A stretch of DNA of 13,680 bases, from positions 69,536 to 83,215 of the forward strand of contig JBBDYA010000085.1 in NCBI GenBank assembly GCA_040902005.1, given 5' to 3'. The notes beneath the pieces are model-generated. The model was not told the DNA's origin, ran no database searches, and saw only the letters and a list, made by a program, of their open reading frames with translations. Positions 2 to 13,680 of the stretch are shown here, in pieces. A program made the position numbers and the translations under genes. The DNA comes from Gemmatimonadaceae bacterium. Its GTDB lineage: Bacteria; Gemmatimonadota; Gemmatimonadetes; Gemmatimonadales; Gemmatimonadaceae. Each line of letters opens with the position of its first letter. Positions within the stretch are counted from its first letter, which is position 1.

Positions 2-292
2 CGCGCGGCGATCAGCTTTCTGGAGGGCCTGGGCGCGTGGGACTGGCCGAAGGTCGTGGTGTCTGCCGGCACGCTGATCGCCTCGCAGGACTCGCTGCGA
101 TGGATTCCCGACGCGCTGCTGCGCAACGGAGCCACGATCGGGCACATCAAGCTGCGCAACTACCAGAGCGCGAAAGAGGTGCAGCGGTCCTTCGCGAGGA
201 TAGCCGGAGTGGACCCCTTCCGCGATCGGCTGATCGCCACGTACCTGGCGTTTTCCGATACCGCGCGTTGGCAGCAAACGGCATGGCGGTAA
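2..292 (+). CDS. C-terminal fragment of a protein entering from the left edge (RAAISFLEGLGAWDWPK...WQQTAWR*); function unknown
   Basis: The frame starting at base 2 is open to TAA at 290-292, with GC-ending codons. The stop overlaps the next ATG (283), which suggests an operon. Too little sequence to assign a product. Confidence 0.65.
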   Translation, partial: RAAISFLEGLGAWDWPKVVVSAGTLIASQDSLRWIPDALLRNGATIGHIKLRNYQSAKEVQRSFARIAGVDPFRDRLIATYLAFSDTARWQQTAWR

Positions 293-1437
293 GGCGCGAA
301 CACGTTCTCGCGACGGTCTGGATCCTCGCGGTCGCGGTGGCGTCCGTCGAGGCGACCGCGCTCCAGTCCAACAATTTCCTCATCTTCCGAACGGCGTGGT
401 TTAATCTCCAGGCCGGCGCGGACCTCTACGGTCCGAGCACGAAGCACTGGGATGTGTTCCTGTATCCGCCACCATTCGCGCTGTTGTTCGCGCCGTTCGC
501 CTCCGTGCCGTTTCTGCTGGGGGTCCTGCTGTGGAACGGCGCGAACGCCGGCGCGCTGTACTGGGGCCTGGGTCGGGTACTGGGCGCGGACCTGGCATTC
601 GCGGCGCGCGCGATCGTGTTCATGGACACCTTCGGTGCCATGCAGATCGTGCAGAGCAACGCGCTCGTCGCCGGCCTGATGCTCCTGGCCGTCGCGGACC
701 TGGAGCGGCGGCGCGAGCTGCGCGCCGCGATCGCGATCGCGGTCGGCAGCGCTATCAAGGTGTTCCCGCTGGCCATCGCCGCGTACGCGATCTTTCGCCC
801 GTACCGGCTGCCGAGGTTCGCGCTCGTCGCGCTGGCCGCGGCCGCCATCATCATCGCGGCGCCGCTGATCGTGGCGTCACCGCAGGAACTGGCGGACCAC
901 TATCGGGCGTGGGGCGCCATGCAGCGCTCGGACGCCACGGCGCGCGGCTTCTCGCTGATGTTCCATCTCCAGCTCTGGTTCGGCATGGACTGGCCCAACT
1001 GGCCGGTGCAGCTCGCGGGCATCGCGATTTTGCTCGCGCCGCTCGCGCGCGTGGCGCTCTGGGGGCAGGAGCGCTTCCGGGTGCGGTTCCTCGCGTCGGT
1101 GCTGATGTTCTGCGTGCTGTTCAACCACCGGTCGGAGAGCGCAACCTTTGTGCTGGCGGCCGCGGGGATCGCGACGTGGTTCGCCATGGCGGACCGGAAC
1201 GCCGTGACCTGGACCGTTCTGGCCGTCGCCATCATCGGCACGGTCCTCTCGTCCAGCGAGGCCATGCCGCACGTGATTCAGGAGCGATTCTTCGAGCCGT
1301 ACCGGGTCAAGACGCTTCCAGTGTTGTTCGTCTGGCTGCTCACCCAGGTGGAGTTGTGGAGGGCGCCTCGAAATACGACGTCGAAATTCCCATCGCCTGG
1401 ATCGCCGGCCCGAGCTCCGGCGACGTCAGCGCCCTGA
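283..1437 (+). CDS. Glycosyltransferase family 87 / DUF2029 membrane protein (GT-C fold, polyprenyl-phosphate-sugar dependent), 384 aa
   Basis: ATG at 283, in the frame of ORF 37..1437. Motifs NNFLIFRTA..DLY, FLYPPPFALLFAPF, QSNALVAGL, IKVFP and FNHRSESATF, plus many hydrophobic TM-like segments, are typical of GT87/DUF2029. Confidence 0.85.
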   Translation: MAVRREHVLATVWILAVAVASVEATALQSNNFLIFRTAWFNLQAGADLYGPSTKHWDVFLYPPPFALLFAPFASVPFLLGVLLWNGANAGALYWGLGRVLGADLAFAARAIVFMDTFGAMQIVQSNALVAGLMLLAVADLERRRELRAAIAIAVGSAIKVFPLAIAAYAIFRPYRLPRFALVALAAAAIIIAAPLIVASPQELADHYRAWGAMQRSDATARGFSLMFHLQLWFGMDWPNWPVQLAGIAILLAPLARVALWGQERFRVRFLASVLMFCVLFNHRSESATFVLAAAGIATWFAMADRNAVTWTVLAVAIIGTVLSSSEAMPHVIQERFFEPYRVKTLPVLFVWLLTQVELWRAPRNTTSKFPSPGSPARAPATSAP

Positions 1438-2200
1438 GTTCGCGCTCACGCTCGGCGCGATAGGAATCCAGCGCCGCCAGCTCGGGGGAATCATATCCGG
1501 GGTGCACCATCAGCTCGGTGGTCCCCGCGGGCAACACGGCCAGCAGCGCGAGGATGTCGCGCGCGAAGGTGGGCGATGCCATCAGCGCGATGCCGGCGAA
1601 CGCCGTAGCGGCTTCCTCCCGTGGCGTCCCGAGCGCCGCCCGCAGCGCCCGTGACTTGAGGCGCGGGACGGGGCGCCCCAGCAGCGTGGCGTCGACTTCG
1701 CTCGCGCGGCGCACGTGGGCGATGCCGTGCCGGCGCGCCGTCGCGCGCACGACGTCGGCGATGCCGGGAAGGCAGTGCGTGTGGCGATGCGAGTCGACGT
1801 GGGTCACGCGCAGGCCCAGCGGGGCGAGCAGCGCCTCGGCCCGCGCGAGCTGTGCCTCGAACTCCGTCTCCACCTCGCGCAGGTCGGCACGGCGCAACCA
1901 GGCGCGCCAGAGCTGGGACAGGAGTGGACGGAACCGGCCCGTGCGCGCATCCCGAAGGGAGGAGCACGCGCTGAGTGGCGCTCCCATCACGATGTTGAAG
2001 TGCAGCCCGATGCTCATCGCCACGCCGCGCGCGCGCAGCGGCGCGAGTTGCCCAGCGGCATCGGAGGATGCGGGCATGTTCACCATCAGCGACGCCGACC
2101 GCACGTTGCCGGCCGCCAGCGCCTCCGCGATGCCGCGATTTACGCTTCGCGCGAGACCAAGATCGTCCGCGTTGATGATGAGGCGCCTGATGTGTGGCAC
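1340..2200 (-). CDS. YdjC/ChbG/HpnK family carbohydrate deacetylase
   Basis: Family motifs LIINADDLG, SASLMVN, GLHFN, THVDSHRHTH, ELMVHPG and RERELRAL. The start is uncertain (GTG at 2200 or 2230) and overlaps the 3' end of the GT2 gene. Confidence 0.9.
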   Translation of the reverse strand: MPHIRRLIINADDLGLARSVNRGIAEALAAGNVRSASLMVNMPASSDAAGQLAPLRARGVAMSIGLHFNIVMGAPLSACSSLRDARTGRFRPLLSQLWRAWLRRADLREVETEFEAQLARAEALLAPLGLRVTHVDSHRHTHCLPGIADVVRATARRHGIAHVRRASEVDATLLGRPVPRLKSRALRAALGTPREEAATAFAGIALMASPTFARDILALLAVLPAGTTELMVHPGYDSPELAALDSYRAERERELRALTSPELGPAIQAMGISTSYFEAPSTTPPG

Positions 2201-2952
2201 GCGGGTGAAAGCTGGTACTTGCCGGTCCACGCGCGCCAGCGGATGCGCCCGAGGTCGCCGGCCATGGTCACCGCGTCGCGCAGATACCGCACGGTGGACG
2301 GCTCGTCATCGTACTGGAAGCGGACCGGCACCTGATCCACGCGCAGGTCGAGCTGGCGCGCGAGGTACAGGCATTCGAGGTCGAAACCGAAGCCCCCGAT
2401 GCCGACGCGCGAGAAAACATCTTCCGCCGCGCGGGCCGTGTAGCCCTTGAGTCCCGCCTGGGTATCCGTCAGGCCGGGCAGCAGCGCGAGCCGCACCATG
2501 CCGTTGAAGGCGCGGCTCATGGCGTAGCGCGTGTAGCGATACGTGAGGTAGCCCGCGTCGAGGTGATACCGCGACTCGGCATGCACGCGGGTGGCGATCG
2601 CGACGTCGGCGCCGCGGTGCAGCGCGGCGGCAATGCGCCAGACCTCGTCCAGCGGGTACGCCAGATCGGCGTCGGTGAATATCCGGAGGGCCGCCGTGGT
2701 CTCGAGCATGCCGCGCCGCACGGAGTAGCCCTTGCCCCGGTTCCGGTCGTTGCACAGCAGGCGCACGTCGGGGCGGCGGGCGAAGTCCTGCAGCAGCGAG
2801 CCCGCCGTGGGGTCCGTCCCCCGGTCGTCCACGAGAATGACCTCGCACGGCACAGGCGAGTGTTCGAGGAATCGCTCGAGTTCGCCCAGCGTGCGCTGCA
2901 GGCGCCCCGCGCAGTGGTAGACCGGAATGACCAGGGCCAGATCCACGATCAT
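2140..2952 (-). CDS. Glycosyltransferase family 2, dolichyl/polyprenyl-phosphate glycosyltransferase-like, 270 aa
   Basis: Motifs VIPVY, VDDRGTD, NRGKGYSVRRG, FTDADL (DxD), DTQAGLKG (cf. DTQCGFK) and FGFDLE. GAGGG immediately precedes the ATG. Confidence 0.9.
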   Translation of the reverse strand: MIVDLALVIPVYHCAGRLQRTLGELERFLEHSPVPCEVILVDDRGTDPTAGSLLQDFARRPDVRLLCNDRNRGKGYSVRRGMLETTAALRIFTDADLAYPLDEVWRIAAALHRGADVAIATRVHAESRYHLDAGYLTYRYTRYAMSRAFNGMVRLALLPGLTDTQAGLKGYTARAAEDVFSRVGIGGFGFDLECLYLARQLDLRVDQVPVRFQYDDEPSTVRYLRDAVTMAGDLGRIRWRAWTGKYQLSPACHTSGASSSTRTILVSREA

Positions 2953-2988
2953 CCCTCGCTCATCCGGCGCCGTTGCTGTGCATCGCGC

Positions 2989-3603
2989 TCAGGGGGTCGC
3001 CGGGGGGGGGGACGCGGCTTTGGCGAGGGACTGCCGTAGCGAGCGCGCCTTGTCCGCGTGCTTCTGGAGGATCGGAACCGACTGGCGGATGTATTCCTTC
3101 ACCGCTGAATCCTGCGTGGCGGCGAGCGCGCGCGCCGTGTTTTCCATGGACGCCTCGTGCGCGGCGAGCGCATACTCCACGTAGGCGCGGTCCCAACCAC
3201 CGCCGAGTGGCGTGGCAAGCAGAGCCTCGCGCATCAGATCCGGCGCCCGCGCGGGCGCCACGCGCGGCGGCTCGCTCGCGATGTTCAGTCCCCTCGCCAC
3301 CGCGGCGGCCTCCCGTCGAAGCGCGATGTGTTCGCGCATCATCATGCGGCCGAATTCCTTGATTTCCAGCGTGGATCCGTGCTGCGCGCCGAGGGCGCCC
3401 ATCGCGCTGTCCGCCGCATGGGAGTGCTCGAGCAACCCAAGGGTGCGATGCTCGTTCAGCGACGCCGCGGCCGTTCCGGCGATGCTGTCACGGATGCCGC
3501 TGGTATCCTCCCGGACCTCACCGGCACTCGCGCCCTCGGATTCGGGGGCGACGCAACCGGCCAGCGCGCACGTGACCGCCAGAAGCGCACTGGATATTCG
3601 CAT
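2989..3603 (-). CDS. DUF4142-like (ferritin-like) lipoprotein, 204 aa
   Basis: Signal peptide with lipobox LAGC. The helical pattern EIKEFGRMMMREH...WDRAYVE...HE...VKEYIRQSVPILQKHADKARSL matches DUF4142. GAGGA lies 5 nt before the ATG. Confidence 0.8.
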   Translation of the reverse strand: MRISSALLAVTCALAGCVAPESEGASAGEVREDTSGIRDSIAGTAAASLNEHRTLGLLEHSHAADSAMGALGAQHGSTLEIKEFGRMMMREHIALRREAAAVARGLNIASEPPRVAPARAPDLMREALLATPLGGGWDRAYVEYALAAHEASMENTARALAATQDSAVKEYIRQSVPILQKHADKARSLRQSLAKAASPPPATP

Positions 3604-5867: not shown

Positions 5868-5905
5868 GGGATCTCCCGGTGTGGTGGCGCGCTAAAGTAG
5901 CTCTG

Positions 5906-5934
5906 AAAAAGGGCGAGCGGGAAGCGCGCCGCTC
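5906..5934 (-). terminator. Possible weak terminator after the fourth fimbrial subunit gene
   Basis: On the minus strand, GAGCGG-8 nt-CCGCTC is followed by GCCC and TTTTT. The stem is short and overlaps the stop codon. Confidence 0.3.
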
Positions 5935-6415
5935 AGGAACCCGAGACGATCGTGAACGTTACCGTTCGCGTCTGTGGTGCGGTGATCGCGGTGGTGATCG
6001 CGGCGCTCAGCCGGTACGCGATCGGTAGCGCGGAGGCCATGCCGGCCGAGATCCCGGTGACCACGTCCGCGGCGGCAACACCGAGGGCGACGTGTCCGGC
6101 GCTCGTGGCGCCACTGGGGGCGGCGAGGAAGACTTCGAGCGTCACGCCGGTGGGGAGCGGCTGGTCGATGGCCGCGGTGACCTTCTTGTTCGCCTCGTTC
6201 GTCGTGATCGCCCAGGTCGATCCCGTGCCATTGACGGCCGTCGGCGCGCTGCCCGCCGTCGCCAGACCGATGACCATCGGGGACGGATCACCGGACATCG
6301 CCATCTGGTTGACCGCGGTCACCTGAAACTGCACGACCTGCGTCGCGGATTGTCCCTGAAGGGACGATCCCGCGAGTGCGACCGCGACGATACCTGTCAT
6401 GACCATCCGGACCAT
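5933..6415 (-). CDS. Putative fimbrial/pilin-like secreted subunit (paralogue 4), 160 aa
   Basis: ATG at 6415 gives a signal peptide (MVRMVMTGIVAVALAGSSLQG-Q). The mature part aligns by eye with the other subunits: ATQ.V.FQV.A.NQ, AGSAP, WAITTN, P.GVTL, LAAP.GA.SAG, DVVT, RTVT[FY]TI. Confidence 0.8.
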   Translation of the reverse strand: MVRMVMTGIVAVALAGSSLQGQSATQVVQFQVTAVNQMAMSGDPSPMVIGLATAGSAPTAVNGTGSTWAITTNEANKKVTAAIDQPLPTGVTLEVFLAAPSGATSAGHVALGVAAADVVTGISAGMASALPIAYRLSAAITTAITAPQTRTVTFTIVSGS

Positions 6416-6450
6416 GCCCTGAGTATCGGCGGTCCGGCCGTAATGTCTAG

Positions 6451-6633
6451 GGGAGCTCTGAAAAACCAAGGGGCCGGAGCGGAGGTGTTCCGGCCGGCGC
6501 GAGCCAGTACCAATACTTGGACGCGAGAGATCTCAATAGGCATGTAAGGCTCGAGTCAGTCGTCCAAGTATTGGTACTATGCTCGTGCCGGCCGGAACAC
6601 CTCCGCCCCGGCCCCGTGTTTTTCAGAGCTTCC
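6451..6633. mobile_element. 183-bp non-autonomous foldback MITE-like element with IS5-like termini and CTAG flanks
   Basis: Arms 6451-6523 and 6561-6633 (73 nt each) are inverted repeats with 5 substitutions and 2 single-base gaps by hand alignment, around a 37-nt spacer. CTAG lies at 6447-6450 and 6634-6637. Termini read GG(G/A)AGCTCTGAAAAAC. No transposase ORF. Confidence 0.7.
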
Positions 6634-7347
6634 CTAGGGGATCGGGAAGTGGATCGTGAACCGCGATCCCGTGCCGGGGTCGCTCACGACGGACAGTCGG
6701 CAGCCCATTGCCTCGCACAGTTGGTGGGCCAGCGGCAGGCCCAGCCCCGCGCCTTCATGGCTCCGTCCCATGCCGGCGTCACCCTGCTCGAAGGGCTCGA
6801 AAATTCGCGCCAGGTTCGCAACGGGAATTCCGACACCCGTGTCCACGACCTCCAGCCGCACCGGGCGGTTGGCGGCGTCCGTGACGACGTTCACGTTGAC
6901 CGTGCCGTGCTGGGTGAACTTGACGGCATTGGCCACGAGGTGGCGCACCACCTGGACGAATTGCTCCTCATCGAGGCGTACGGCCGGCGCCTTCTCGGGG
7001 AGCGCGAGAACGATGCGCACCCCCTTCTCGGTGGCGGATCGACGGTGCCTCGCTGCGACGGTCGCGGCAATGTCGGCCACGTTGGTGTCGGTGATATGCA
7101 TTTGCAGCATCCCTCGTCGGATGCGGGAATGATCGAGCACGTCCTGCACGAGCTGCAACAGCTGTTCGCCGTTCTCGCGCACGCGCTGCAGCAACGCGAG
7201 GTCTTCCGGACGCTGGTTCCCGGCCCGGTTTGCTTCGAGCACCCGCGAGAACCCGATGACGGCGTTCAGCGGGGTGCGCAGTTCGTGGCTCATGCGGGAC
7301 AGAAACTCGTCCCGTGTCTGCTCGAGTTGGGTGGGTTGCAGTGACAT
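6634..7347 (-). CDS. Cytoplasmic histidine kinase, HisKA + HATPase_c only, no sensor domain, 237 aa
   Basis: H box FLSRMSHELRTPLNAVIGFS, N box ANAVKFT, G1 DTGVGI, F box IFEPF, G2 GAGLGL. An in-frame TAG near 7410 rules out a long N-terminal extension. Confidence 0.92.
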   Translation of the reverse strand: MSLQPTQLEQTRDEFLSRMSHELRTPLNAVIGFSRVLEANRAGNQRPEDLALLQRVRENGEQLLQLVQDVLDHSRIRRGMLQMHITDTNVADIAATVAARHRRSATEKGVRIVLALPEKAPAVRLDEEQFVQVVRHLVANAVKFTQHGTVNVNVVTDAANRPVRLEVVDTGVGIPVANLARIFEPFEQGDAGMGRSHEGAGLGLPLAHQLCEAMGCRLSVVSDPGTGSRFTIHFPIP

Positions 7348-7351
7348 GCGT

Positions 7352-7597
7352 CTAGGAGGATTGGCCTGATTCGTTATTGGCAGCGGTCTCGCGAGGGTCG
7401 GGGTTCGCTATGTGGCCCGTGTCGGGCTTCGGCGGCAGCGACTTCGCGGCGGACTGCGCCGCGGAACCGGCCGGGGATGGGGCGGGGTTGTCGGTACCCG
7501 TCACCGCAATGATGATCGAACCGCCCACCTGATTCGGGTATGCGTCGAGAGACATGGTCGTTGCCGGTTGTCGAGTGGTCGCGGCGTCGCGACCCAT
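7352..7597 (-). CDS. Small hypothetical protein, 81 aa, Pro/Ala/Ser-rich
   Basis: Fills the gap between the 7613 hairpin and the kinase and stops 4 nt before the kinase ATG. Purine-rich GAGAACGAG precedes the ATG. No recognisable motif. Confidence 0.35.
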   Translation of the reverse strand: MGRDAATTRQPATTMSLDAYPNQVGGSIIIAVTGTDNPAPSPAGSAAQSAAKSLPPKPDTGHIANPDPRETAANNESGQSS

Positions 7598-7612
7598 CTC
7601 GTTCTCACTGCA

Positions 7613-7638
7613 CGCCTGGCGGCATCCGCCGCCAGGCG
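7613..7638 (-). terminator. Strong hairpin 3' of subunit gene 7670-8146 (terminator without U-tract, or mRNA 3' stabiliser)
   Basis: Perfect 11-bp stem CGCCTGGCGGC / GCCGCCAGGCG with a 4-nt loop, about 30 nt after the stop. No poly-U. Confidence 0.5.
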
Positions 7639-7669
7639 CCAGCGAGCATCCTGGTTGACGATCGGGTGT

Positions 7670-8146
7670 TTAGGAACCCGAGGTGATCGTGTACGTCACG
7701 GTGCGGCTCTGCGAGCTCACCACGCCGGAGGACAGCGCCGCCGTCAGCTCGTAGGTCACGTTCAGGCCACTCTCGGCCTTTCCGGAGATGGCGGTGACGA
7801 CGTCCGCCGCGGTCGTGGACAGCGTCGTGGCGCCGGCGCTGCTGCCGCCGGTGGGCGCCGCCAGGTTGGCGGTGAGCGTCAGCCCGGCCGGCATCGCCGA
7901 GTTGATCTGCGCGGTGATTTTCATGCTGGTACCGTTGGTCGTGACGGCCCACGTCCCACTCGCCTGCTCCGCCGTCGGCGCGCTGCCGGCAACGGCCGTG
8001 GTGATGGAGATGGACGGGCTGCCTGCAAAGGCGATCTGGTTGATCGCGTCCACCTGGAATGTCACGTCCTGCGTGGCGGTCTGGGCCTGGGCGGCACTCG
8101 CCGCGGTCAGAAGGGCCATCGTCGCCAGGATGCGTCCTGCGTTCAT
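7670..8146 (-). CDS. Putative major fimbrial/pilin-like subunit (paralogue 3), 158 aa
   Basis: Signal peptide ending AQA-Q, no Cys, Ala/Thr/Ser-rich. Gapless alignment to the 12351-12827 product gives 113/158 identities by hand count. SD GGAG upstream. Confidence 0.85.
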   Translation of the reverse strand: MNAGRILATMALLTAASAAQAQTATQDVTFQVDAINQIAFAGSPSISITTAVAGSAPTAEQASGTWAVTTNGTSMKITAQINSAMPAGLTLTANLAAPTGGSSAGATTLSTTAADVVTAISGKAESGLNVTYELTAALSSGVVSSQSRTVTYTITSGS

Positions 8147-8223
8147 TGTCGTTCTCCGATAGGGGAAGTTTGACCTGCGCAGGAAGGATGTCCCTCACCG
8201 GATTACAGGATTCTGTCCGCCGA

Positions 8224-8239
8224 ATTACGGTTTTGTCAT
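8224..8239. promoter_or_regulatory. Putative OmpR-family (CusR/CopR/CzcR-type) binding box ATTAC-GGTTTT-GTCAT, with an extra ATTAC half-site at 8202-8206
   Basis: Imperfect 5-6-5 palindrome, with a 15/16 identical copy at 12906-12921 at essentially the same distance from the paralogous start codon. Confidence 0.65.
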
Positions 8240-8269
8240 CGAGCGTCCGGCGCGCCCTGGAGGCCCGTT

Positions 8270-11032
8270 TCACTGCTGAATCCCCGCATTCGGCTTGATG
8301 GTCTTCGTGCCGGCGGCGGGTGCCTGGGTCTTGGGCGCGGCCTGGATGGATCGGAGTTCCTCGTCTTCGCCGATGATCTGCACCTCGCGTCGGCGGGGCA
8401 TCAGGCGGAAGCTCAGGGTGCGTGTTTCTCCGGGCTCCAGCGTCAATTCCACCCGGTCTGGATCAAAGCGGTGGTGGGCCGGCGCGTCACCGCGGATGCT
8501 GAGCAGCCAGTCGCCGGGCGGCACGTCGGCGAAGGACACCTTGCCGGACGCGTTCGTCGTCCGATACAGGGTGTCGCGGGCGCCGGTGAGCATCAGGGTC
8601 GCATTGGACAGGGCGCCGGCGTCCGCCAGCGAGTCCGGCGCGCCAGCCACTCCGGTACGGGCAACGATGAACTGCCGGACGTCGATGTCGATCCGGGCGC
8701 TGCGCGCGATGGCCATCGCGAACGTCGTCGGCGTGTGCCGAAGGCTGTCCACCATGAGCGTGGGATCGCCTACGAACACGGCGTTCGCGAAGGACGTTTC
8801 CTGTGACATGGACAGCCGGTGCTCGCCACCGGGTACGCCACCAAACGCCACCTGCCCCTGCCGGTCGGTGATCGCCACCTGGGGCCCGAGCCGCACCAGC
8901 GCGTTGGGCACGCCCTGACCGCTCACCGCGTCCACCACCCGGCCGTAGACGCGACCGGGAGTGCGCAACCGGGACACCGGCAGTTGCAATGGAATGCCGA
9001 ATTCGAGATAGGCCACGTTCTGGTCACCAGCGTCGAGCGTTCCTCCTCGCATGAGACGCGTCCGCAGGGAGATGCTGCTGCCATTGGCTCTCGTGTGCGA
9101 GATCAGCCCGTCCAGCTGTGAGTGCCATCCGGCGCCGGACGATTGCACGCGCGTGCCATAGCCCATGAGCGAGAGGTGCGTGGAGCGGTTCAGCCGTACC
9201 GAGACGTCGCCGCCGCCGGTGATCGCCCCATCAAGACCCTTGGTGACGCCGCCGCCGCTGTACCGCTCCACGTACGCGCCGAACGATCCGGCGCGGACGG
9301 CACTGCGGATGCCGACGGACGCCTCCGTGAACGTCCGCGAGGCCGCGTCGCTGAAGCGCGACCGACCCCTTTCGATTTCCAGCTGCAGCGTGCCGAACGG
9401 AACGCGCAGGTCCGATCGCGCGCGCAGGCTGTTCTGCACGCCCGACCGGGAAATCCCCTGCACCGTGGTGCCGCGTGAGACCGTCCCGAGTTCCAGCGTC
9501 ACCTGGTCCATGATCGTCGTGGAGATCGACCCGAGGTCGAAGCGCTCCACGTAGGGCACGCCTGTCGTGCGGCTGAGGTCCGCCTCCTGCCGGCTGCCGT
9601 TCACATTGAACGCCAGGCCGTCGCGTGCGCGCACATAGCTCGTGACATAGAGATGGTCGGCGGCGCGCTGGGCTCCGGCGAACGTGGTATCCGCCGAGCG
9701 GTGGCCCACGTCCAGGGAAAACGACTGGGCGCCGACACTGACGCGCATCGTGTGCGCGAGTCCCGGCCCGCCCCCCCCCCCGGACGCGCTCCGGCTGCGC
9801 GCCAGCTCGGCGCTGGCGCTGAGAATATCCCGATCGAATGATGCGATGCCGCTCGCAATGGCGCCGGGAAGCGCGCCACCGATCCGGTCCACCAGGTTTA
9901 CTGTGAACCGTGTGTCGAGCCGCGGCTGCGCCGTGAGGAACAGGCCGCCTTCCGCGCCGCGCTCCGGCACCCGGCGAAACTGCTGCCCATACCCACCGAA
10001 GGAAAACATGCCGCGCGTGCCGTCCGCGCCAAGCCCGAAGCCGGGCTGCCCGGAGCCGGTCAACGACGACAGCATGAACAGCTGGTCGCCGCCGCGGGCG
10101 CGCCATGAGGGCGCGCTCAGCTCCACGCGGTACTCGTCCCGCTCGCCGAACGCGGCGTAATGCCCCGTCGGACCGCGCATGAGAAAGTCGAGCGTCACGG
10201 TGCCGCCATCCACCAGCTTGCCCTGCCCGAACAGTTCGAACGGGGACACGCCATCCGACGTGGCCGCGCGAAGATGGACGCGTGTCGGGATGCGCAGGAA
10301 CTCCTCGATCTTCCGGCTTGGCTCGGGCACCACGGTAGTTCGCGCCGATGCATTGGCGGCATGTTCGTCGCCCTCCTGGAAGGCGGCAACCTCGAGGACG
10401 TCGTCTTGCGCGCCCTGCAGTCCAGCGGGCGTATGCGACGTGACGCGCACCACGCGCGATTCCTGCGACTGCAGTGCGAAGGCCGTGTCGGACAGTGTGA
10501 CGGCACCCAGGGATCCCCTGGCCGTGAGTCGCATGCGTCCCGCGACGTTGCCGCGGTTGCGCACGAGGAACGTGGCCTCGTAGCCCTTGCCACTGACCAC
10601 GAAGCCCGGACGATCGAGCAGCGTGATTTCCACCGCGCGCCGGGGCTGGACCAGCACCAGGATGGAGTCCATTACCCCCTCCGGATTCGCGGTCGTGGTG
10701 ACGGTCAATCGGACGGGGTACACCCCGGCGGCCGCGCGCGAGGGCACCACAATGCTCAGCATCAGCATCTCGGTGGAGCGCGGCGGCACGGGCAGCAGTG
10801 CGCCGCCCGTGAGCATGGTCCAGGTCTCGGGCAATTCGACGTGCGGCATCACCTGGACCGCCTCGTCGCGGCGGTTCACAACCGTGAACGCCGCCGTGAC
10901 GGTAGCGGACGCGGCAATCGTGTCCCGGCGCGCGGCGCGAATGCCAAGGGCGTCCGTGTCCTGCGCGCCTGCCGACGCGCCGACGCTTAGCGTCAGGAGC
11001 GTCGCGAACAGGACGAGGGACTGACGTCGCAC
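8270..11032 (-). CDS. Large secreted/outer-membrane protein, usher-like architecture (N-terminal Ig/NEW3-like domains, central beta-rich region, two C-terminal carboxypeptidase-regulatory-like domains), 920 aa
   Basis: GTG at 11032, 11 nt after the upstream stop, gives a signal peptide ending AGA-Q. Ig-like motifs F.VRNRGN and AAAGVYPVRL; a long Gly/aromatic amphipathic region; GRVVDAVSGQGVPNALV..TDRQGQVAFGGVPGG and TNASGKVSFADVPPGDW. The CDS is solid; the usher role is inference. Confidence 0.7.
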   Translation of the reverse strand: MRRQSLVLFATLLTLSVGASAGAQDTDALGIRAARRDTIAASATVTAAFTVVNRRDEAVQVMPHVELPETWTMLTGGALLPVPPRSTEMLMLSIVVPSRAAAGVYPVRLTVTTTANPEGVMDSILVLVQPRRAVEITLLDRPGFVVSGKGYEATFLVRNRGNVAGRMRLTARGSLGAVTLSDTAFALQSQESRVVRVTSHTPAGLQGAQDDVLEVAAFQEGDEHAANASARTTVVPEPSRKIEEFLRIPTRVHLRAATSDGVSPFELFGQGKLVDGGTVTLDFLMRGPTGHYAAFGERDEYRVELSAPSWRARGGDQLFMLSSLTGSGQPGFGLGADGTRGMFSFGGYGQQFRRVPERGAEGGLFLTAQPRLDTRFTVNLVDRIGGALPGAIASGIASFDRDILSASAELARSRSASGGGGGPGLAHTMRVSVGAQSFSLDVGHRSADTTFAGAQRAADHLYVTSYVRARDGLAFNVNGSRQEADLSRTTGVPYVERFDLGSISTTIMDQVTLELGTVSRGTTVQGISRSGVQNSLRARSDLRVPFGTLQLEIERGRSRFSDAASRTFTEASVGIRSAVRAGSFGAYVERYSGGGVTKGLDGAITGGGDVSVRLNRSTHLSLMGYGTRVQSSGAGWHSQLDGLISHTRANGSSISLRTRLMRGGTLDAGDQNVAYLEFGIPLQLPVSRLRTPGRVYGRVVDAVSGQGVPNALVRLGPQVAITDRQGQVAFGGVPGGEHRLSMSQETSFANAVFVGDPTLMVDSLRHTPTTFAMAIARSARIDIDVRQFIVARTGVAGAPDSLADAGALSNATLMLTGARDTLYRTTNASGKVSFADVPPGDWLLSIRGDAPAHHRFDPDRVELTLEPGETRTLSFRLMPRRREVQIIGEDEELRSIQAAPKTQAPAAGTKTIKPNAGIQQ
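9771..9781 (-). repeat. G11 homopolymer inside the usher-like gene (codes GGGG), currently in frame
   Basis: C11 on the + strand; the minus strand reads TCC GGG GGG GGG GGC GGG. Confidence 0.9.
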
Positions 11033-11043
11033 GGCAACGGTTC

Positions 11044-11868
11044 CTAGAACCGCAGCGTGAACTGCGAGGCGAATACCGCGTCCTCGCCGGAATCGGCGAA
11101 GACGATGGCGCGATACGTTCCGGGCGCCAGTCGGCCGAGCGCGAACGTCTGGTGCAGCGACGTACCGGGATACAGCAGTCCCCGCTCCTGTCGCGCGTTG
11201 GCGCGCAGTGTTCCCTGCTCGTCGTACACCTCGATCCACAGCGCCGGCCGGTAGGCGCGCTCACCCACGTTCTGCACCTCGAGCTCGAACGACTGCGTGC
11301 TGTCCGGATTCGTGAGGAAGCGCGAGTTGGCGAAGCCCACCTTGCGACTGCCACTCGTGCGAATGTGCGTGGCCACCTGCACCGCGTACCGGGTGACCGA
11401 CCCGATGCCCACCTGCGGACGCCCGCCAGAGGAGCGTCCGGCTTCGTTGGGCGCCCCCTCCACCATCACGGCGCTCCAGAAGGTGCCGGCCAGGGAGTCG
11501 TTCGCCGGCACCACCACGGAGTAGGTCACCGTCATTTCACTGTTGGGCGGCACCAGGAGCGAACGCACCGTGGGCGTGATCCAGCGGGCATTGGAGCGCG
11601 GTGAGGTGCCGGGATCATTGAAGTGCGAGGTGCCGTCCGCGAAGAACAGGTAGTCCGTCTGATAGATGCGCACCGGCTGGTCTTCCTGCGTGAGGTTGCG
11701 CACCACGATCGTTCCCACGTAGGTCTCGCCAGGCGAGGCGACGCGCTCCTCCACGGTGTTGCCCACCACGGAGATCTGCGCCTGTGCGAGATCCGCCGCG
11801 AACAGAAGGGCCGCGAGGGCAAGCAGATGCCTGCGCGGACAGGCGATTACGGGTGCAAGGAAGCGCAT
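11044..11868 (-). CDS. Secreted two-Ig-domain pilus chaperone-like protein (PapD-like / DUF916-like), 274 aa
   Basis: ATG at 11868, 5 nt after the upstream stop; signal peptide ending AQA-Q. Motifs PGETYVGTIVVRN, SNARWI, VPPNSEMTVTY, GTFWSAVMVE, RYAVQV; second domain with VQNVGE, LLYPGTS and LAPGTYRAIVFAD. Confidence 0.7.
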   Translation of the reverse strand: MRFLAPVIACPRRHLLALAALLFAADLAQAQISVVGNTVEERVASPGETYVGTIVVRNLTQEDQPVRIYQTDYLFFADGTSHFNDPGTSPRSNARWITPTVRSLLVPPNSEMTVTYSVVVPANDSLAGTFWSAVMVEGAPNEAGRSSGGRPQVGIGSVTRYAVQVATHIRTSGSRKVGFANSRFLTNPDSTQSFELEVQNVGERAYRPALWIEVYDEQGTLRANARQERGLLYPGTSLHQTFALGRLAPGTYRAIVFADSGEDAVFASQFTLRF

Positions 11869-11873
11869 GAGTC

Positions 11874-12335
11874 TCACGGGGCCTGGACGATGGTGAGCGT
11901 GACCGTTCGGGTACTGAGGGGGACGACGCCGGCGAGCACGGTGGCGCTGAGCTGGTAGGTGATGCCGTGCGTGGAGGTCGTACGCCGGGGAATGCCGACC
12001 ACGACGTTCCGCGCGGTCTGGTCCAGCGCGATCTGGCCCACCGACGTGGCACCCGCCGGCGCCGCGTAGGTGCCGGTGAGCGTGACGCCGGCCGGCATCG
12101 CCGCGTTGAGCTGCGCCGTGATATCGTACGTGCGGTTCGGATTGCCGGTGTCTACCGTGTACGTCGTCGTGCTGTTCCCCACTGAAATCGGCTGGGACCC
12201 CGCTACCGCCGTGCTGATGCGGAGCAGGCCGGGGTTGCCCGATACGCTCAACGTCGCCGGCTGCGCGTTCGCCGCCCTGCCGCCAATTGGCAGCAGCGCG
12301 GCGAGTGCGAGCAGGAGAACGCGAAGCCTCGGCAT
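11874..12335 (-). CDS. Putative minor/tip fimbrial subunit (paralogue 2) lacking the N-terminal extension, 153 aa
   Basis: ATG at 12335 (alternative TTG at 12347); signal peptide ending ANA-Q. Shares ITAQLNAAMPAGVTLT, AAPAGATS, TYQLSAT..AGVV and RTVT.TI with the other subunits. Confidence 0.8.
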   Translation of the reverse strand: MPRLRVLLLALAALLPIGGRAANAQPATLSVSGNPGLLRISTAVAGSQPISVGNSTTTYTVDTGNPNRTYDITAQLNAAMPAGVTLTGTYAAPAGATSVGQIALDQTARNVVVGIPRRTTSTHGITYQLSATVLAGVVPLSTRTVTLTIVQAP

Positions 12336-12350
12336 GGTCACGAACAACGC

Positions 12351-12827
12351 TCAGGTGCCGCCGGTGATGGTGTAGGTCACGGTGCGGCTCTGCGATGCCA
12401 CGACACCGGCGGCAGCGGTCGCCGAGAGACCGTACGTCACGTTCAAGGATCCTTCCGCCACCTGCGTGAGGCTGGTGACGACGTCCACCGCGGTGGTGCC
12501 AAGCGTCGTGGCGCCGGCGCTGCTTGCGCCCGCGGGCGCGGCGAGGTTCGCCGTCAGCGTCACACCGGAAGGCATCGCCGAATTGATGCTCGCCGTGATC
12601 TTGGCGTTGGACTGGTTCGTGGTGATCGCCCACGAGCCGGACGCCGTCGCCGACGCGGGTGCGCTGCCGGCCGTGGCGCTGTTGATTACGAGCGACGGGC
12701 TGCCGGTGAAGGCGATCTGATTGATCGCATCCACCTGGAAGGTCACGGTCTGCGTCGCGGTCTGGGCCTGCGCGGCGGTCGCGGCAGTCAGCAGAGCCAG
12801 CGTCGCCAGAAGTCGGGTCGTGTTCAT
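12351..12827 (-). CDS. Putative major fimbrial/pilin-like subunit (paralogue 1, first gene of the operon), 158 aa
   Basis: Signal peptide ending AQA-Q. Mature N-terminus QTATQTVTFQVDAINQI has alternating hydrophobic residues; C-terminal strand RTVTYTIT; no Cys. Confidence 0.85.
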   Translation of the reverse strand: MNTTRLLATLALLTAATAAQAQTATQTVTFQVDAINQIAFTGSPSLVINSATAGSAPASATASGSWAITTNQSNAKITASINSAMPSGVTLTANLAAPAGASSAGATTLGTTAVDVVTSLTQVAEGSLNVTYGLSATAAAGVVASQSRTVTYTITGGT

Positions 12828-12905
12828 GATGGGCGTCTCGTGAAGGCTGTCTTGTCCTGCACGAGAAGAGTGACCCCCGGGCGATTACACGAGTCTTGCA
12901 ACGGC

Positions 12906-12921
12906 ATTACGGTTCTGTCAT
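12906..12921. promoter_or_regulatory. Putative OmpR-family (CusR/CopR/CzcR-type) binding box ATTAC-GGTTCT-GTCAT, with an extra ATTAC half-site at 12884-12888
   Basis: Lies in the divergent intergenic region between the subunit operon and the response regulator; conserved copy at 8224-8239. Confidence 0.65.
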
Positions 12922-12965
12922 AGAACTGCCGGGATATGGCTCGTTCCCCTTTCCCCATCTCTTAA

Positions 12966-13680
<715 letters not shown>

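Follow-up and report, generated by a model that had tools for sequence, protein, structure and literature searches.

Gene Content and Organization of the Locus

We examined a 13,680-nucleotide stretch of DNA (hereafter, the window) from a Gemmatimonadaceae bacterium (assembly GCA_040902005.1, contig JBBDYA010000085.1, positions 69,536 to 83,215) that carries a candidate pilus gene cluster consisting of four subunit genes (S1 to S4), a gene for a chaperone, a gene for a large outer-membrane protein of usher-like architecture, and two putative regulatory genes. An earlier note made from the letters of this DNA had described eight open reading frames (ORFs) between 5933 and 12827 as a possible new fimbrial system, and their order and positions were as it gave them. 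All lie on the minus strand and, in the direction of transcription, they are S1 (12351..12827; 158 aa), S2 (11874..12335; ATG start, 153 aa), the chaperone (11044..11868; 274 aa), the large protein (8270..11032; GTG start, 920 aa), S3 (7670..8146), an ORF of 81 codons, a histidine kinase, and S4 (5933..6415; ATG start, 160 aa). The span proposed for the cluster was incomplete, as it misses a divergent response regulator gene at 12966. The tight packing noted for the first four genes is correct, with gaps of 15 nt (S1-S2), 5 nt (S2-chaperone), and 11 nt (chaperone-large gene). Past the large gene the gaps are 123 nt to S3, 72 nt from S3 to the small ORF, 4 nt from there to the kinase, and 218 nt between the kinase and S4.

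The six structural genes were said to encode Sec-type signal peptides that end before a glutamine, and our own inspection by eye agreed, each having a basic n-region, a hydrophobic h-region, and the sequence A/G-x-A/G followed by Gln. The S9 peptidase encoded next door also carries a signal peptide with Gln after the cleavage site, so this residue is no mark of the pilus system. Pyroglutamate capping by a glutaminyl cyclase of family PF05096 was considered and is unsupported, as PF05096 had no match in the genome (93% complete). In three RNA libraries, all from a single study, contigs belonging to a close relative span S3 (in each of the three) and portions of the other genes; such contigs give no expression levels, may include DNA, and do not in themselves prove transcription.

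The Subunits

The description of the four subunits as cysteine-free paralogs was confirmed, as none contains Cys and S2, S3, and S4 are 45, 72, and 47% identical to S1, respectively. The genome has no copies besides these four. No Pfam, NCBIfam, or PDB sequence match names a family for them, and yet the family is large: a word search returned 2,326 proteins and a profile search 1,935 clusters at 50% identity. The named relatives are Gemmatimonadota, and one cluster has members named as Desulfobacterales/Deltaproteobacteria (one of ten clusters checked gave taxon names). Searches with tblastn against plasmids gave no match; a subunit of Deinococcus deserti was found later by profile. The absence of cysteine extends to 120 of 134 diverse homologs, and SCPU had no match among 76 homologs nor, within the 25 of 26 families listed, among 134 members. 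HHalign probabilities of the subunit profile stayed below 1% against Fim, EcpA, DUF4402-type, and WxL-like subunits and against other subunits from Gemmatimonadota. With respect to WxL proteins in particular, a Pfam match was absent from S1-S4 and the homologs scanned, the HHalign probability to an Arthrobacter WxL-like pair was 0.2%, and no WxL structure stood among the listed fold matches of S1, which excludes nothing. In an Atlas look-up the nearest named cluster was WxL (0.90, 164 shared features), which we treat as a lead and no more.

The alternating N-terminal strand pointed out earlier does open S1, S3, and S4; S2, when aligned with them, is without 12 residues of the strand. In S1 the signal peptide is followed by a putative 14-residue donor strand (V7-x-F9-x-V11) and then by the pilin domain, and columns 7, 9, and 11 are hydrophobic in 98-99% of the 134 homologs, with polar columns between them. 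The model of mature S1 (pLDDT 87.5) has six strands from residue 15 on, the C-terminal strand being the last, while residues 1-14 are unpaired (pLDDT 65 for residues 1-10). Thus, on the question of whether the subunits might be self-complete, the model leaves the N-terminal strand outside the six-strand domain.

Structural searches with S1 returned mostly pilins. Foldseek placed CfaB first, with an E-value of 0.004, and had TasA among its matches, and a VIA search of 48,161 chains returned CS17, CfaB, and CooA at the top (Z 7.9-8.4), with a like result in a further VIA comparison. Overall, Z for these class 5 pilins was 7.9-8.6 over 101-113 residues, at an rmsd of about 3. The CfaB-type alignments begin at residue 14-15 and end at about 135-136, that is, they span the six-strand domain. 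Further matches were FimA, PapA, CsuA/B, and the cannula protein CanA, the last of which aligned along the whole length (1-137) with Z 7.5-8.2 and so tied with CfaB. Z values of this size are only middling, and what counts is that the match list consists almost entirely of donor-strand pilins. We interpret the model as an incomplete Ig domain with an N-terminal extension.

The Chaperone

For the chaperone, a profile of 54 rows was searched against all PDB sequences, and EfmWxLIP1 of E. faecium was its sole significant match (E 0.0014, 177 columns, both domains); no chaperone of a chaperone-usher (CU) system was matched at E 10. The WxLIP_PGBD domain was found in 4 of the 54 rows at E < 0.1, below its cut-off, and PapD_N in none of them at E 0.1. 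By HHalign the profile aligned at 94% probability (E 1e-7) with an Arthrobacter DUF916 protein that adjoins a WxL-like gene, with shuffled decoys scoring < 9 bits versus 29. Probabilities to EcpB, EcpE, and FimC were about 1% or less. Those to the chaperones of other Gemmatimonadota pilus-like loci were 93-96%; two of these chaperones, matched at 93%, pass the PapD_N cut-off, and one such PapD_N-type chaperone adjoins DUF4402 subunits. Because the chaperone is as close to these PapD_N-bearing loci as to the DUF916 protein, its sequence relationships suggest a link between the WxLIP and PapD-like families and not a clear WxLIP member.

The WxLIP family has been shown to consist of donor-strand chaperones, of which 96.7% have a C-terminal membrane helix, according to the main text of a preprint on the Elr pilus (bioRxiv 10.64898/2026.10.17.759780). 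The chaperone described here has a signal peptide and appears to be a soluble, periplasmic protein, with a hydrophobic C-terminal segment in 0 of the 54 rows. EcpB/CfaA-type chaperones have an invariant signature residue, Arg89, in the account consulted (PMC4654587); opposite that residue our profile has an invariant serine (Ser102), in an alignment of low probability (~1%). The PLSDB label "FimB/Mfa2" for the D. deserti chaperone was rejected, since it rests on a 58-residue match just at the cut-off.

Chaperones of these kinds were also seen in other settings. On an Arthrobacter plasmid (L121:5229-7534), genes for two secreted WxL-like proteins flank one for a DUF916 chaperone with a membrane anchor, and similar DUF916/WxL-like loci occur on Streptomyces and Curtobacterium plasmids.

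The Large Outer-Membrane Protein

The large protein had been proposed to form a β-barrel, and its structure model (pLDDT 91.6, pTM 0.66) bears this out with a domain order like that of an usher: two Ig domains (1-215), then 26 strands between residues 222 and 665 with the alternation of long and short loops found in outer-membrane barrels, and two C-terminal sandwiches. The number of strands was counted from the DSSP string and is best taken as about 26. Foldseek ranks 1-7 were all FimD/PapC (best E 3.8e-14), and VIA aligned the barrel together with both C-terminal domains (CTDs) to PapC/FimD (7lhh, 219-857). There was no match to the usher family PF00577 in the large protein, nor to PF00577, PF00345, or PF06030 anywhere in the genome.

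Ushers are defined by a β-sandwich plug within the barrel (as described in PMC11459180). Here the loop alternation recurs across the 116 sequences compared, in every one of which the barrel spans 436-459 residues, and the longest inter-strand segment is 13 residues, which leaves no room for a plug. The model is therefore best described as a predicted barrel without a plug-sized insert, and no such insert was found in the alignment of the D. deserti barrel either.

Conservation of the Gene Cluster

To place the cluster in context we used 88 related loci, made up of the 80 highest-ranking among 288 chaperone matches and of eight subunit matches, near-duplicates included. Among the loci with room for a gene ahead of the chaperone, all 69 have a subunit gene immediately upstream of it, and the large gene follows immediately downstream in 71 of 72. 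Within the phylum, subunit matches and strong chaperone matches fell in the same 11 of 301 genomes. The cluster is real and conserved in Gemmatimonadota, and is also present in D. deserti VCD115, whose plasmid 2 carries a four-gene version (subunit, chaperone, barrel, and strand-less subunit). The D. deserti barrel aligned by HHalign at 99% over 744 columns. No two-domain adhesin was found in the window or among the recurring neighbors of the 88 loci (many of which are short), no large adhesin recurs near them, and no transport or redox genes are among the recurring neighbors.

The strand-less subunit has a fixed place in this arrangement. In the subunit adjacent to the chaperone, the distance from the signal peptide cleavage site to a fixed Gly is 17-23 residues in 63 of 64 scored (76 found), and in the next subunit upstream it is 30-34 residues in 49 of 49 scored (56 found); the 12 and 7 unscored rows were left out, mostly as they were cut by contig ends. 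The subunits downstream of the large gene all keep the strand, with 30-34 residues to the Gly (15 of 15), and D. deserti shows the same strand-bearing/strand-less pair. A subunit such as S2 could accept a strand and could not donate one, so that only the distal end of a fiber is possible for it. S2 is thus likely a tip or initiator subunit; single-domain tips without a donor strand are known in SafD and AfaD, and PamT of the Pam pilus is predicted to be a comparable one. S1 is likely the major subunit.

These results bear on one alternative, in which the barrel would be an export or anchoring pore, the chaperone would serve in folding only, and the subunits would self-assemble outside the cell as matrix fibers or tubes, as cannulae and TasA do. 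Such a scheme would fit the tie of CanA with CfaB (Z 7.5-8.2 over 1-137), the presence of TasA in the Foldseek list, and the lack of an adhesin and of a plug. It accounts poorly for two usher-like C-terminal domains that align with the FimD/PapC CTDs, for a dedicated strand-less subunit, and for the near-invariant adjacency of chaperone and barrel, and we regard it as very improbable.

Several other locus types came to light in these searches. A second pilus-like type in Gemmatimonadota (L125, L126, L127, L130) has a related chaperone and an outer-membrane-like protein of ~1000 aa with the same N-terminal Ig domains; its subunits are different, with N-terminal cysteines and one weak SCPU match. 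A third type (L128, L129, L131) combines DUF4402 subunits and a PapD_N-bearing chaperone with an 856-aa protein that has usher-like C-terminal domains and no PF00577 match. Plasmids of Deinococcus NW-56 and AB2017081 (L120:6905-12478, L122:4836-10521) encode a related chaperone and barrel beside unrelated-looking subunit candidates of 290 aa and 190 aa.

Probable Regulatory Genes and a Shared Upstream Box

The divergent gene at 12966..13629 (plus strand) encodes an OmpR-family response regulator, with Response_reg and Trans_reg_C matches by Pfam. Homologs of it, 54-85% identical and likewise divergent, occur in 32 of the 46 related loci with room for one. The kinase (6634..7347, minus strand) has HisKA and HATPase matches by Pfam and is without a sensor domain; a close homolog lies ≤2 kb past the large gene in 9 of the 29 loci with room. 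S4 is conserved after the kinase. A 46-bp box made of direct repeats with 11/22-bp spacing precedes both S1 (12878..12923) and S3 (8196..8241), each on the minus strand. The copies before S1 and S3 are the two top genome-wide sites, and the S3 copy overlaps a sigma70-like match. Across the 88 loci, the box pattern occurs 26 times in 25 loci, with no occurrence on the opposite strand. A repeat period of 11 bp fits binding by OmpR/PhoB-type regulators. On these grounds the box is likely a regulator-binding promoter element, the divergent regulator likely controls the operon, and the kinase is likely the partner of the regulator.

Two further observations concern these elements. A short membrane segment stands at the N-terminus of the kinase in some relatives (L047:8092-9120, L058:11133-12038); here, and in other relatives, the kinase starts just before the H-box. 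A third, weaker copy of the box was found at G000:C124:59428 (L132:3929-3974), ahead of a 156-aa ORF with a lipoprotein-like signal that may be a further member of the regulon.

A Model for Pilus Assembly

We consider it quite probable that the cluster encodes a chaperone-assisted, donor-strand pilus of an unclassified lineage that grows through the barrel. The view of the earlier note, that these genes specify a donor-strand fiber with its own chaperone and export pore, is therefore one that our analysis supports. In the pathway we envisage, the six proteins with signal peptides would go to the periplasm, where the first domain of the chaperone would lend each six-strand subunit the strand that completes it, by analogy with WxLIP/ElrE and CU chaperones. 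Pairs of chaperone and subunit would then dock on the N- and C-terminal sandwiches of the modeled barrel, and the chaperone strand would give way to the N-terminal strand of an incoming S1, S3, or S4. S2 would come first, starting and capping the fiber and providing a single-domain tip instead of a two-domain adhesin, with S1 and S3 (a second major-type subunit with its own promoter box) forming the shaft and S4 serving as a minor subunit. In the resting state the pore would be shut by some means different from the classical plug, for example an N-terminal Ig domain or a parked subunit. The divergent regulator, once phosphorylated by the sensor-less kinase, would control S1 and S3 via the shared box. 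The function of such a fiber is likely surface attachment or a role in biofilm matrix.

A number of observations weigh against this model. The Foldseek E-values of S1 are 0.004 or worse, a Z of about 8 can be reached by unrelated small sandwiches, and an acceptor groove in the modeled subunit is putative. The chaperone falls below every Pfam cut-off and is assigned from sequence evidence. The large protein has no sequence similarity to FimD or EcpC, its whole-chain TM to FimD is 0.24, the best VIA match of its barrel was MtrB (Z 20.9, versus 17.0 for the PapC pore), and porins, Occ among them, tied with PapC. The related loci were picked by similarity and contain near-duplicates; the regulator is missing from 14 of the 46 with room for it and the kinase from 20 of 29. 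With regard to the tip, the genomes G106 and G273 show one subunit each, of the strand-bearing type, and in one related locus the subunit next to the chaperone does carry the strand; S2 is consequently not indispensable.

The scores of MtrB and the Occ porins, as high as that of PapC, and the weak subunit E-values would also suit a system that makes no fiber, in which monomeric or short periplasmic or surface Ig proteins form a static complex on a porin-like barrel, as an accessory to transport or to an S-layer. We give this very little credence, given a free, conserved, amphipathic N-terminal strand that has been lost in one dedicated paralog, the homology of the chaperone, and the lack of transport or redox genes among the recurring neighbors.

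Within the donor-strand pilus model, the manner in which the pore is closed deserves comment. All solved ushers have a plug that seals the pore and that activates the usher when it is displaced, and a plug-less barrel raises the questions of what keeps the outer membrane sealed and what sets assembly in motion. As a four-gene version of the cluster is present in D. deserti VCD115, which is in culture, these questions are directly testable. It is conceivable, though on balance unlikely, that the system represents a third lineage of donor-strand pili lying between the WxL and chaperone-usher systems in sequence space and connecting them. Its usher would be a simpler one of 26 strands, plug-less and gated in trans: S2 (or an N-terminal Ig domain) would park in the pore, act there as a detachable plug, and leave it as the tip. 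If true, this would show the usher plug arising from a captured subunit.

Relationship to Known Pilus Systems

The expectation that none of these proteins would strongly match the Fim, Pap, Csu, Coo, or Ecp families held in sequence, profile, and HHalign searches. The closest systems by structure are the class 5 and other alternative CU pili (CFA/I CfaABCE, CS1, CS17; ECP), which, as described in PMC7531860, share the fold and size of the subunit, the absence of cysteines, an N-terminal extension of ~13 residues, and a four-gene chaperone-subunit-usher layout. They differ from the present system in that here no part has detectable sequence similarity to them, there is no two-domain tip adhesin (CfaE/EcpD), the modeled barrel has two N-terminal Ig domains and no plug-sized insert, and the chaperone is without the Arg89 signature. 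The cluster could still be an ordinary system of the alternative (class 5/ECP) clade that has diverged very far, its usher being of the normal, gated kind and misdrawn in the model. The class 5 pilins as best structural matches of the subunit, the usher as top Foldseek match, and the lack of cysteines would all agree with this. We find it improbable, as the chaperone profile matched WxLIP1 in the PDB and no solved CU chaperone, Ser and not Arg stands at the column of EcpB Arg89 (in the low-probability alignment with the signature of PMC4654587), no two-domain adhesin is among the recurring neighbors, the longest inter-strand loop is 13 residues, and the barrel spans 436-459 residues in 116 sequences.

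In comparison with the FimD/PapC ushers (PMC11459180), the large protein has the same order of N-terminal domain, barrel, CTD1, and CTD2 and counts them as its top Foldseek matches, but is predicted to have ~26 strands by secondary-structure count instead of 24, with no plug domain and no PF00577 match. Archaic (sigma) CU pili such as Csu/CupE, which PMC10104325 reports from outside Proteobacteria, including Deinococcota, match at the level of the fold (Z about 6.3), but the disulfide conserved in them is missing here, as is any SCPU, PapD_N, or Usher match. The Pam pilus of CPR bacteria is a donor-strand pilus outside Proteobacteria with PapD-like chaperones and a predicted single-domain tip, PamT; its chaperones, however, are membrane-anchored, its pilins are larger, and it is without an usher (PMC13278184).

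The Elr/WxL pilus of Bacillota (bioRxiv 10.64898/2026.10.17.759780) is the system to which the chaperone is a sequence relative, through the DUF916/DUF3324 WxLIP family, and the putative donor strand here shares a [V/I]-x-F core with the WxL consensus. However, the chaperone here is soluble, an outer-membrane barrel takes the place of sortase and LPxTG, with no LPxTG subunit in the window, the subunits have no WxL sequence match, and the hosts are diderm (Gemmatimonadota, Deinococcus), whereas the main text of the preprint confines Elr to Bacillota and has no mention of Gemmatimonad, Deinococc, or diderm. In the same text the chaperones of WxL and of chaperone-usher systems form two disjoint families, and WxL systems are usher-free. 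In the present case a single chaperone profile connects with WxLIP1, with a DUF916 protein from an actinobacterium, and with proteins that bear PapD_N, and an usher-shaped barrel lies beside the chaperone in diderms. Although the system would operate much as a chaperone-usher pilus does, we file it neither as a chaperone-usher nor as a WxL pilus, because it departs from the former in plug, usher family, adhesin, Arg89, and disulfide, and from the latter in membrane anchor and sortase. A description of this family was not found in the literature searched, which was mostly open-access and, for the Elr preprint, comprised the main text. Beyond the earlier reading, our analysis adds a WxLIP-related chaperone, a barrel predicted to be without a plug-sized insert, a conserved strand-less S2, and a two-component pair within the module.

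Other Features of the Window

The 81-codon ORF (7352..7597, minus strand), which had been listed as a small ORF between S3 and the kinase, is probably not a gene. It had no homolog in the 88 related loci by blastp, and the best tblastn match against them (E 0.017) covered a low-complexity stretch only. The variants listed for a contig of a relative fall at codon positions 3/2/1 in the numbers 4/4/3, with no third-position bias, versus 14/1/1 in S3. The ORF is thus probably non-coding.

The 218-nt gap ahead of S4 contains a 191-nt palindromic repeat (6447..6637), CTAG-flanked and resembling a MITE or REPIN insertion, with a hairpin z of -19.6 and many copies in the genome. A contig of a relative joins 6446 to 6634 without the palindrome, an empty site, and the palindrome is not part of the pilus system. 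Genome-wide, 45 end motifs of this near-perfect hairpin family were found, with ends also at 5892-5910 and many copies at contig ends. Rfam matches on the hairpin were to miRNA only and were dismissed as chance. The terminator-like hairpin after S4 (5914..5935, minus strand) is itself an end of this repeat family.

At the other edge of the cluster, positions 13630-13680 hold a poly-G run and then N, an assembly scaffold gap that truncates the end of the regulator gene. Downstream of the cluster, at 247-3603, are GT87, YdjC, GT2, and DUF4142 genes, which recur beside the cluster in three related loci (L058, L066, L067), probably as a matter of local synteny.

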